From NCBI RefSeq assembly GCF_003334355.1, contig NZ_QOWP01000078.1: DNA of 2,009 nt. One strand, written 5' to 3'. Position 1 is the stretch's first letter; each line of letters begins with the position of its first letter. The notes below the pieces were generated by a model. That model did no database searches, was not told the origin of the DNA, and was given only the letters and a program-made list of their open reading frames with translations. This document shows positions 1 through 2,009 of this stretch, one piece after another. A program made the translations under genes and the position numbers. The stretch comes from Escherichia coli. GTDB taxonomy: Bacteria; Pseudomonadota; Gammaproteobacteria; Enterobacterales; Enterobacteriaceae.

Positions 1-330
1 CTGCGGTTTTTCAACTATTCAGATACATCACTCCCATCACATTCATTCCTCCGCATCATAGGCATATAGGCTATATCACCTTGATATTTTTCTTCTTCAG
101 ATAAAAACTGTTATCTATGTATACTTTTAAACCCAATCTGTGTAGAGTCTCTGCATAAGATAGTTTGCAGTTGCCGCTTCAGCTTGCGCCATAAACCGCC
201 TGATTTTTGCTGCCACCTGTTAGCATTCCTGTATACCTGAAACGACAATGTTTATCTACGAACTTTAAGAACACCCAAGATAAAAATTGTCAACTATATC
301 ATATATAACACATTACTAATTCGAGGCTAT

Positions 331-444
331 ATGAACAGCATACTGATAATCACATCTCTCCTTATCATATTCAGCATTTTTAGTCATGCCCTAATAAAAT
401 TAGGGATTGGCATATCCAATAACCCAGACAAAACCGATGTATAA
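331..444 (+). CDS. Candidate small ORF, 37 aa, hydrophobic N-terminus (possible small membrane peptide or upstream leader peptide); could be a chance ORF in AT-rich DNA
   Basis: ATG 331 preceded by GAGG (323-326) at a 4-nt spacing; translation [37 protein letters not shown], stop TAA at 442-444. Residues 4-18 form a signal-peptide- or transmembrane-like hydrophobic stretch. Below the size cutoff of the supplied ORF track. AT-rich DNA yields Ile/Leu/Phe-rich frames by chance, hence the low confidence. Confidence 0.2.
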
Positions 445-512
445 GTCAACATATCCTGAATCAGACATACAATATCGCAATGAAAATCAATAATATTTTA
501 AGGAATATCTTC

Positions 513-746
513 ATGAAATCAAAAGACACCCTAAAGTGGTTCCCTGCGCAGCTTCCTGAAGTAAGAATTATCCTAGGGAATGCTGTAGTGGAAGTAGCAA
601 AACAGGGAAGACCTATCAATACCAGAACATTGCTTGATTACATTGAAGGAAACATAAAGAAAAAATCATGGCTGGATAACAAAGAATTATTACAAACAGC
701 GATATCAGTTCTTAAAGACAACCAAAATTTAAATGGTAAAATGTAA
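513..746 (+). CDS. ydfK: Small 77-aa prophage-borne protein of unknown function, YdfK/YnaE-like (cold-shock-associated small protein of cryptic prophages Qin/Rac, recalled from memory). The ORF track starts at ATG 480 (88 aa), but ATG 513 is the more likely start.
   Basis: Open frame 480-746 with in-frame ATG at 513 preceded by AAGGA (500-504) at an 8-nt spacing; ATG 480 has no recognisable Shine-Dalgarno. From 513 the product is exactly 77 aa (MKSKDTLKWFPAQLPEVRIILGNAVVEVAK...). Position directly upstream of a Pin-like recombinase matches the ydfK-pinQ / ynaE-pinR arrangement as I remember it. No recognisable catalytic or DNA-binding motif. Confidence 0.6.
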   Translation: MKSKDTLKWFPAQLPEVRIILGNAVVEVAKQGRPINTRTLLDYIEGNIKKKSWLDNKELLQTAISVLKDNQNLNGKM

Positions 747-771
747 TATAATAAACTTACTTTTTTATCAT

Positions 772-808
772 TTTTCCACTTTAACAACATTTTGCTCCAC
801 TTTTCCAC
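772..808. repeat. Short direct repeats TTTTCCAC (772-779 and 801-808) with a third CCAC-containing copy TTTGCTCCAC (791-800), just downstream of the small ORF stop
   Basis: Read directly from the sequence; CCAC recurs at 776-779, 797-800 and 805-808, each preceded by a T-tract. Function unknown. Confidence 0.3.
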
Positions 809-911
809 GACCAAACAACTTGAAATCTGGTTAAAATAACACGCAACACTATTCTTCTTCCTTGAGTCCGCCCGGAACTCGAAAAACAAACCGAGTTAAA
901 GCCATTTTTCA

Positions 912-925
912 CAAAATCGATTTTG
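912..925. repeat. Perfect 14-bp palindrome CAAAATCGATTTTG in the recombinase upstream region (candidate protein-binding site; function unproven)
   Basis: Read directly: 912-925 equals its own reverse complement, with a central CG dinucleotide. A further CAAAAT copy lies in direct orientation at 934-939, about two helical turns from the left arm, and another at 1004-1009. Confidence 0.4.
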
Positions 926-1062
926 GGTCTCACCAAAATTACGGGGTTGCATACGCATTCGTTTATTTTCGAACGTGTACATACAAATATGCACAAAAAT
1001 AATCAAAATTATTTTCTGCGATGCATTATGATATGAACACCAATTTCGTATAGAGTCTCACT

Positions 1063-1653
1063 ATGTCTCGAATTTTTGCTTACTGTCGGATATCAACGCT
1101 GGATCAGACCACCGAAAATCAACGCCGGGAAATCGAAAGTGCAGGTTTTAAAATCAAACCTCAGCAAATAATCGAAGAACACATTAGCGGCTCAGCAGCA
1201 ACCAGTGAGCGTCCTGGTTTTAACCGGTTGCTTGCTCGCCTGAAATGTGGTGATCAATTGATTGTGACAAAACTGGATCGCCTTGGTTGTAATGCAATGG
1301 ATATCAGGAAAACAGTGGAACAACTGACCGAAACAGGTATCAGAGTGCATTGCTTAGCATTGGCTGGCATTGACCTGACCAGTCCAACAGGAAAAATGAT
1401 GATGCAAGTAATTTCAGCAGTCGCTGAATTTGAACGAGACCTTTTACTTGAACGCACTCATTCCGGGATAGTAAGAGCCCGCGGCGCAGGGAAACGTTTT
1501 GGTCGACCACCTGTGTTAAATGAAGAACAGAAACAGGTGGTATTCGAACGAATTAAGTCAGGTGTAAGTATAAGTGCCATTGCCCGGGAATTCAAAACCT
1601 CGCGGCAAACCATTTTAAGAGCCAAAGCAAAACTTCAGACACCTGACATATAA
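1063..1653 (+). CDS. pinQ: Small serine recombinase, resolvase/invertase family (Pin-like putative DNA invertase of a lambdoid prophage), 196 aa
   Basis: N-terminal catalytic motif Y7-x-R9-x-S11-T-x-D14-Q15 ([11 protein letters not shown]) with the nucleophilic serine at S11; KLDRLG motif at 70-75; E-R pairs in [12 protein letters not shown]; Gly/Arg-rich hinge [10 protein letters not shown]; C-terminal helix-turn-helix [26 protein letters not shown]. Length 196 aa matches PinQ/PinR as recalled. Symbol is tentative, since pinQ and pinR are near-identical paralogs. Confidence 0.85.
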
Positions 1654-1659
1654 AAAATA

Positions 1660-1674
1660 ATCTCGGTGTGAGAT
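1660..1674. terminator. Weak palindromic hairpin (ATCTC-GGTGT-GAGAT) between the convergent recombinase and tfa 3' ends; possible weak bidirectional terminator
   Basis: 5-bp stem with 5-nt loop at 1660-1674; on the minus strand it is followed by the T-tract complementary to 1651-1659. The stem is short and GC-poor, so termination efficiency is doubtful. Confidence 0.2.
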
Positions 1675-1750
1675 GCTTTACGTCTTCCAAGCCCCCTTCC
1701 TTGCCGTAAATGGAAAGATACATCTAATTAAAGAATTTATATGTTTTACC

Positions 1751-2009
1751 CTACGGCAGTGCTGGCCATTCAATATCCTGTGCAGTTGACGTATCAACAC
1801 GGTTCAGCAATACCCGATACTTTTTCCATGCTTCCAGCAACGAGATTTCTTCCTCCGTTGCAATTTCCAGATCTGCAGCATCCTGAAGCGGCGCAATATG
1901 CTCACTGGCTACCTGCATCAGGTTGTTTTTTGTTTCTTCCGCCTCCCGGATCCGGAACAGTTTTTCTGCTTCCGTATCCTTCACCCAGGCTGTGCCGTTC
2001 CACTTCTGA
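1751..2009 (-). CDS. tfaQ: Tail fibre assembly protein (Tfa), C-terminal portion only; gene continues beyond the right edge of the window
   Basis: Minus-strand frame is open from the window edge (2008) to the stop at 1753-1751; the ORF track's GTG at 1984 is an internal codon, not the true start. The C-terminus ...[27 protein letters not shown] is the characteristic Tfa/gpU-type C-terminal signature of lambdoid, Mu and P2 tail fibre assembly proteins. Convergent with the recombinase as in Qin/Rac. Symbol is tentative (tfaQ/tfaR paralogs). Confidence 0.75.

Follow-up and report, generated by a model that had tools for sequence, protein, structure and literature searches.

pinR of Rac-type prophages is probably the resolvase gene of a decayed Tn3-family transposon

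A stretch of 2,009 nucleotides of Escherichia coli DNA (assembly GCF_003334355.1, contig NZ_QOWP01000078.1), hereafter the window, carries pinR, the gene of a small serine recombinase, between the phage gene ydfK and the tail-fibre assembly gene tfa. We conclude, with a probability of about 0.8, that positions 858–1701 of the window are the remnant of a replicative transposon of the Tn3 family, that pinR is the resolvase gene (tnpR) of this element and that its position beside tail-fibre genes is incidental. On this reading the decayed transposon ends and the target duplication on either side mark the gene as a Tn3-family tnpR, and it would lie among tail-fibre genes simply because the transposon happened to land there.

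PinR is 83% identical in amino acid sequence (82% in nucleotide sequence) to the TnpR of a minimal Tn3-family transposon and 77–84% identical to transposon TnpRs, compared with 39% to PinE of prophage e14 and 38–39% to P2/Mu-type invertases and PinE together. Homologues found by protein search number in the thousands, and they occur in 1858 plasmid records. The genomic context was looked up for four clusters of relatives at 77–84% amino acid identity, 28 places in all. At 26 of these the relative sits 159–160 bp from a divergent gene for a 994-residue transposase (DUF4158 and DDE_Tnp_Tn3), or a fragment thereof; the hosts are E. coli plasmids, Hafnia, Klebsiella and Shewanella. Intact relatives end in perfect 38-bp inverted repeats, GGGGTCCGCTTGGAAAACGGAAAATATCCCACGCTAAG (GGGG...TAAG). 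The flanks vary among the copies and diverge exactly at the repeat ends, directly past the outer CCCC, and three intact copies (L024, L017 and L008) are bordered by 5-bp target duplications, TAATA, AATAT and TAGAT. The perfect repeats, the copy-specific flanks and the duplications thus identify the relatives as mobile elements. In the smallest intact form tnpR is the last gene, and a perfect right repeat begins 9 bp past its stop codon. Shewanella baltica (L061–L066) holds a 78%-identical and apparently actively transposing transposon: each genome has three copies (two chromosomal, one on a plasmid), all differing in their flanks. We note that in Erwinia oleae (L007, 1299–2618) two homologous recombinase genes lie head to head, inverted, about 120 bp apart. 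Published annotations give the name 'pinR' to resolvases of TnAs1-type elements and of ISTB11.

Both terminal repeats of this transposon are present around pinR in degenerate form, and the pentamer TTCCT stands directly outside each (Table 1). In 300 shuffled sequences the best chance match to the repeat was 23/38 and none reached 24. A scan of 120 kb of natural sequence (phage, prophage and chromosomal) gave no site at 24/38 or better apart from the two flanking pinR, which recurred in every pinR-bearing locus. The left TTCCT is conserved in a divergent variant of the locus (PhiR63_1 and L038), the right copy in phages Tritos and PhiR63_1. BLASTN aligns window 983–1692 to an E. coli plasmid transposon at 82% identity, and weaker similarity in the same register reaches left to about position 946. 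Homologues of window 747–945 were found only in prophages, with none in plasmids or transposons; the left flank is therefore phage DNA. No tnpA is present in the window, where intact copies have a 994-codon gene (about 3 kb) between the left repeat and the resolution site (res), and the element is thus a non-autonomous remnant and not a functional member of the family. The 45-bp joint found in place of tnpA resembles neither that gene nor the tnpA-proximal spacer of intact copies (15–18% ungapped identity). A perfect 14-bp palindrome, CAAAATCGATTTTG, occupies positions 912–925, between the left terminal repeat and res.

The segment between the joint and pinR is probably an eroded res. It aligns without large gaps to the 160-bp tnpA–tnpR intergenic region of the transposons (82 of 120 columns against L019), and the alignment covers all three subsites. 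Intact copies carry six conserved half-sites, GT[AC]CGAAA or TTTCG[GT]AC, arranged as three subsites in the classical res layout. None of these half-sites is preserved exactly in the window, and only those at 967 and 1044 come within one mismatch; summed over the six, mismatches come to about 14, whereas most transposon copies have about 2 and the nearest has 5. A sigma-70-like site at 976–1003 is overlapped by the res remnants, and judging from the sequence this segment probably still holds the pinR promoter. Capture of the gene by res-mediated recombination was considered, in which case homology should end at the site I crossover; it was set aside. In PhiR63_1 the similarity spans the whole of site I, and the left terminal repeat lies further left still, so an internal deletion of tnpA fits better.

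The organisation of the window is not peculiar to this strain. RefSeq names on identical DNA are ynaM, ydfK, pinR and tfaR, at a Rac-type prophage end adjoining uspF and ompN. Some part of the window is matched in 4209 of 5426 complete E. coli genomes, and the ydfK–pinR intergenic region is at least 99% identical in 2339 records (2801 matching E. coli genomes). A preliminary description of the window had placed ydfK/ynaE, the 196-residue recombinase and tfa correctly, at the positions given in Table 1, and its account of a recombinase convergent with tfa, with the small unrelated ydfK upstream, is accurate; it is only the interpretation put on this arrangement that fails. The comparison with Rac and Qin that it proposed gives 99.25% identity to K-12 Rac and 99.40% to K-12 Qin, and the gene order at both K-12 prophage ends (pinR in Rac, pinQ in Qin) is that of the window. 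Its suggestion that the order reflects degeneration of a cryptic prophage is contradicted by inducible phages, which have the identical order beside int/xis. Eleven phage records encode a recombinase 98.5–99.5% identical to PinR, among them Tritos, PhiR63_1, 2H10, mEp460_ev081, HannyBb, Kati and Turner. In the two phages inspected the order runs J, stf, fibre and chaperone genes, the convergent recombinase, a ydfK-like gene and then int/xis or the genome end. As inducible lambdoid phages are arranged identically, the layout is not a product of prophage decay; the 'non-canonical' arrangement is native to this phage group. In Salmonella phage 118970_sal3 the ynaM–ydfK module (window 278–750) is directly convergent with tfa, with no recombinase between them. 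A 61%-identical homologue in Erwinia phage LS-2018a (L004, 7001–7606) sits between the large terminase and portal genes and is followed by open reading frames (ORFs) of 80 and 82 residues; association with tail fibres is thus not a consistent trait of the recombinase family, whose place differs from phage to phage.

The protein itself departs from its transposon relatives at three positions. PinR reads LDRLGC where Gin, gamma-delta resolvase and PinE read LDRLGR, which places Cys76 at a position occupied by arginine in every other aligned serine recombinase. Each of the 20 copies examined from phages and prophages, 14 of them on IMG/VR contigs, has the TGT codon, and arginine stands in all 114 representatives of the transposon-type family. 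The same 114 sequences have invariant arginine and glutamate at the R32 and E56 positions (Tn3 resolvase numbering, as below), where PinR has Gln35 and Lys61. Two of the four residues of the regulatory R interface are thereby replaced; the other two, R2 and K54, are still basic in PinR (Arg3 and Arg59). The active-site set Y6, R8, S10, D36, R68 and R71 is incomplete: PinR has Y7, R9, S11 and R73, and its D36 equivalent is glutamate, as it is in the aligned transposon TnpRs. The helix-turn-helix (HTH) region is nearly identical to that of the transposon TnpR. In Tn3 resolvase, R71A and R71K abolish resolution in vivo and lower cleavage about 1000-fold, and site I is still bound (Olorunniji and Stark, PMC2794168). 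The R interface consists of R2, R32, K54 and E56, and the double change R2A/E56K blocks resolution (Montano and colleagues, PMC9943657). The engineered 'NM' Tn3 resolvase, which is independent of accessory sites, carries six changes, E56K among them. The allele in the window has a further peculiarity, Ala101 (positions 1363–1365), which turns LALGG into LALAG; codon 101 specifies glycine in K-12 PinR, in PinQ, in the phage copies and in 114 of 114 transposon-type relatives.

The reading frame of pinR has nevertheless been kept. For two transposon copies compared with each other, the ratio of non-synonymous to synonymous substitution rates (dN/dS) is 0.05. It is 0.16 when the window is set against its nearest transposon and 0.36 for two Cys76 alleles (window and L039), the last value being below neutrality (binomial p = 6e-4). 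These values suggest that selection on pinR is relaxed and has not vanished, and together with the intact ORF they point to some retained role, probably non-catalytic or of low activity. At one locus (L038, 5001–5591; E. coli GCA_910593615.1) the gene in the same ydfK/tfa position is, from codon 1 to about codon 186, 100% identical to the tnpR of a plasmid transposon. It thus carries Arg76, within flanks of the phage type, and looks like a gene conversion from the transposon into the prophage gene. This replacement would mean that the prophage and transposon gene pools still recombine.

We propose the following history. In an ancestor of the Rac/Qin-type lambdoid phages the transposon would have entered a TTCCT target that lay between ydfK and tfa; tnpA would then have been lost through an internal deletion, and the terminal repeats and res would have decayed afterwards. 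Because the protein has no partner res and has had two R-interface residues and the catalytic arginine replaced, we infer that it is incapable of regulated cointegrate resolution and that any strand exchange it still performs is very weak. It has probably kept its ability to bind DNA, as the HTH is almost unchanged from that of the transposon enzyme. Likely targets would be the res remnants over its own promoter-like site and the res sites of related plasmid-borne transposons.

Table 1. Features of the window
Feature	Position	Strand	Basis
Target-site duplication TTCCT, left copy	858..862	.	identical pentamer directly outside terminal repeat
IRL', degenerate left terminal inverted repeat	863..900	+	24/38 matches to the transposon repeat, outward-correct orientation
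45-bp joint replacing tnpA	901..945	.	holds a 14-bp palindrome
res', probable eroded resolution site, three resolvase-binding subsite remnants	946..1062	+	aligns to transposon tnpA–tnpR intergenic region
pinR, tnpR-derived small serine recombinase (probable), 196 aa	1063..1653	+	Pfam Resolvase E = 5.6e-36, HTH_7 E = 8.6e-11
Codon 76, TGT (Cys), at catalytic Arg position (R71 of Tn3/gamma-delta resolvase)	1288..1290	+	
IRR', degenerate right terminal inverted repeat, 3-bp deletion	1662..1696	-	25/38 ungapped, 27/38 with one 3-bp gap
Target-site duplication TTCCT, right copy	1697..1701	.	identical pentamer directly outside terminal repeat
Unoccupied target site sequence (predicted), ...CTTCTTCCTTGCCGTAAATGG...			
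ynaM/ynfT small ORF, 37 aa	331..444	+	NCBIfam YnaM_YnfT_fam 63.9 bits (cut-off 35), RefSeq
ydfK/ynaE, 77 aa, annotated cold-shock protein	513..746	+	RefSeq; PHROG 2718, E = 5.8e-47
Tail-fibre assembly gene tfaR/tfaQ-type, C-terminal 85 codons	1751..2009	-	RefSeq; PHROG 105, E = 6.6e-38

Several observations weigh against a transposon origin or against the loss of function that we attach to it. The solved structure of Gin is a slightly better match than that of gamma-delta resolvase (105 against 82 bits), and in sequence the TnpR clade to which PinR would belong lies not far from the invertases. A query joining the left and right flanks found no spanning match to an unoccupied target in 5426 E. 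coli genomes or 50,697 phage records, and an exact 23-mer across the junction is absent from IMG/VR; the insertion is thus deduced from its ends and duplication and not seen as a before-and-after pair. The res remnant is 68% identical to the nearest transposon, a value that resembles the 72–75% among the transposon copies themselves, so the case for its decay lies in where the changes fall, in the half-site cores, and not in their number. The effect of the arginine-to-cysteine replacement in PinR is extrapolated from Tn3 resolvase and would hold by analogy. Finally, PinQ, which is 99% identical to PinR, has been described as an active invertase of the e14 P segment, with deletion and overproduction phenotypes (Kirigo et al. 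2025, PMC12529663).

The preliminary description took the locus for a host-range switch of the Gin/Cin/Pin type, its tail-fibre inversion cassette rearranged or degenerate in a cryptic prophage. A small serine recombinase does adjoin tfa and stf genes here, PHROGs places it in a broad 'DNA invertase' family and Gin is the top structural match. The Resolvase plus HTH_7 architecture is common to invertases and resolvases and does not discriminate between them, and in NCBIfam PinR scores under the cut-off of every named recombinase family, so that no specific assignment results. Switches of this type also have a Fis-dependent enhancer within the 5' part of the recombinase gene, but Fis sites are so degenerate that the sequence alone does not reveal them. 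Identity to Gin-type invertases and PinE (38–39%) is far below that to the transposon TnpR (83%). The proposed search for a pair of inverted sites through the fibre genes yielded no convincing pair, either in the window or within 12 kb at the Rac-type and Tritos loci: the window and 5.5–6.5 kb spans at the Rac-type and Tritos fibre genes contain only short, 71–94% complementary repeats, of a kind for which the repeat finder itself warns that chance matches are frequent. The core of pix, the e14 crossover site, has no match with up to three mismatches allowed, whereas pinE of e14 is preceded by a pix site at a distance of about 55 bp. No palindromic res- or site-I-like sites were found elsewhere in the five prophage and phage loci searched. 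The orientation of tfa relative to pinR is convergent at every locus inspected (no systematic scan of all genomes was made), and a published survey reports inversions across E. coli genomes in e14 only, with none in Rac or Qin (PMC12529663). Given also that active phages share the order and that the gene is bracketed by transposon ends and a target duplication, a decayed switch is hardly credible. A local invertible fibre cassette is absent and probably never existed. What stands is the remark that this is no canonical Gin/Cin/Pin cassette, to which we add that no recombination substrate adjoins the gene. A Salmonella Senftenberg 'pinR', published as a predicted invertase at the flagellar phase locus fljAB, was set aside as a lead. 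It is also quite unlikely that PinR is a resolvase still at work, resolving cointegrates or multimers of related Tn3-family elements or recombining their res with the prophage remnant. The nearly identical HTH, the abundance of related transposons on E. coli plasmids (1858 plasmid records with homologues) and the exchange of sequence at L038 would all suit such an activity. However, catalysis and the accessory-site synapse depend on the very residues altered by R71C, R32Q and E56K, none of the half-sites in the local res is intact, and ordinary homologous recombination explains the exchange at L038.

A more serious contender, which is compatible with a transposon origin, is that PinR and PinQ are catalytically competent invertases acting in trans on the pix sites of e14, so producing a chimeric StfE2 that blocks T2. 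The idea of a recombination site outside the window, also raised in the preliminary description, survives in so far as it matches this published claim for PinQ and the P segment. Overexpression of pinQ reportedly lifts the inverted fraction of the segment from about 30% to 88% and blocks T2 adsorption, survivors of T2 infection carry the inversion, deletion of pinQ sensitises cells to T2, and pinQ/pinR are induced 14-fold by the infection (PMC12529663). Lys61 is, in addition, the E56K change of the accessory-site-independent 'NM' resolvase; by analogy it could alternatively have freed PinR from res control, giving a weak and promiscuous recombinase. Against this, the same study describes its pinE mutant as locked in one orientation with pinQ and pinR still present, and no strain that expresses pinQ in the absence of pinE is listed in its Table S4. 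PinR has no catalytic arginine, its recognition helix reads SRQTILR where that of PinE reads GVSTLYKR, and the AAACC/GGTTT elements are 4 bp apart in site I of the transposon relatives as opposed to 2 bp in pix; these three differences make direct catalysis by PinQ doubtful. PinE itself gives 49%, and the 88% obtained with PinQ would be easier to explain by bias or selection than by plain catalysis. On balance we hold inversion in trans to be possible but doubtful, with an appreciable minority chance. We also put forward, tentatively and with a rather modest chance, that PinR/PinQ is a catalytically crippled TnpR which has been exapted and acts mainly through DNA binding, not through strand exchange. 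One possibility is that DNA-bound PinQ may bias the orientation of the PinE-driven P segment, which would explain both the 88% inverted with PinQ as against about 49% with PinE and the locked pinE mutant. Another is that PinR may bind, and interfere with, the res sites of incoming related Tn3-family transposons.

The remaining genes of the window are phage genes: ydfK/ynaE is the gene to the left of the insertion, tfa that to its right, and ynaM/ynfT is phage context outside the transposon remnant. The tfa piece is 94% identical to lambda tfa, and the gene continues beyond the window edge. None of the PADLOC defence-system models matches PinR, YdfK or YnaM. The only Rfam match is a full-length one to IS009 (RF02111; window 1785–1983, minus strand; 220.9 bits, gathering score 117); it falls entirely within the tfa coding region, and the 'RNA family' here coincides with conserved protein-coding sequence. 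Upstream of ynaM the motif AGATAAAAA(C/T)TGT occurs three times (99–118, 244–257 and 278–297), two copies direct and one inverted, and may be an operator or promoter element for the ynaM–ydfK unit. In 118970_sal3, a 77-kb phage, the ynaM–ydfK module (L035, 4001–5120) is 78% identical to the window and adjoins P2-type tail genes; the module moves between unrelated phage types. Tritos (L002, 9819–13858) and PhiR63_1 (L003, 2572–6611) have two tandem pairs of fibre gene and small ORF on one strand, a 2373-bp stf with a 282-bp ORF followed by a 1041-bp fibre gene with a 294-bp ORF, where Rac has a single stf–tfa pair.

If pinR is a tnpR, a widespread annotation has to be corrected: in E. coli K-12 and thousands of other genomes pinR and pinQ are entered as putative invertases, and the 'PinR' label has been propagated to recombinases elsewhere, transposon resolvases included. 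No hidden tail-fibre switch would then be expected in Rac- or Qin-type phages. There is also a concrete reason for re-testing the recent claim of PinQ-catalysed e14 inversion in phage defence. The locus would be a case in nature of a resolvase gene that has outlived its transposon and stayed under selection. The locus itself is familiar, and remnants of transposons are commonplace. The literature searched contains no statement that E. coli pinR or pinQ comes, as its tnpR, from a decayed Tn3-family element whose ends and target duplication are still in place, nor that either lacks the catalytic arginine. The PinQ study (PMC12529663) concerns what is practically the same protein and would supply the site outside the window. 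It treats PinQ as Pin-type on 38% identity, mentions neither a Tn3 origin nor the missing arginine, and does not mention the dependence on pinE that its locked mutant implies.

With the Pin/P switch of e14, Gin/G of Mu and Cin/C of P1, pinR shares a two-domain serine recombinase beside phage tail-fibre and assembly genes. It differs from them in its low identity (38–39%), in having no invertible segment, no 26-bp crossover sites and no orientation polymorphism, in being convergent with the fibre genes and not next to a crossover site, and in the missing catalytic arginine. The likeness is much closer to the TnpR/res module of the minimal elements on E. coli plasmids, organised as repeat–tnpA–res–tnpR–repeat, with which the window shares the sequence (83% amino acid, 82% nucleotide identity) and, in a probable eroded form, a res upstream of the gene. 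As in an intact Tn3-family element, a 38-bp repeat follows directly past the stop codon, a 5-bp duplication is present and the HTH is near-identical. The remnant differs from such an element in having no tnpA, repeats reduced to 24–27 of 38 matches and broken res half-sites, in the replacement of the catalytic arginine and two R-interface residues of its TnpR, and in being fixed inside a phage genome and no longer mobile. Non-autonomous derivatives of Tn3-family elements, either internally deleted or miniature, keep their terminal inverted repeats and target duplication without a transposase gene. The remnant likewise keeps its repeats, which are probably too decayed for mobilisation in trans, and its duplication without tnpA, but it stands apart from these derivatives in carrying an intact tnpR ORF that remains under selection.

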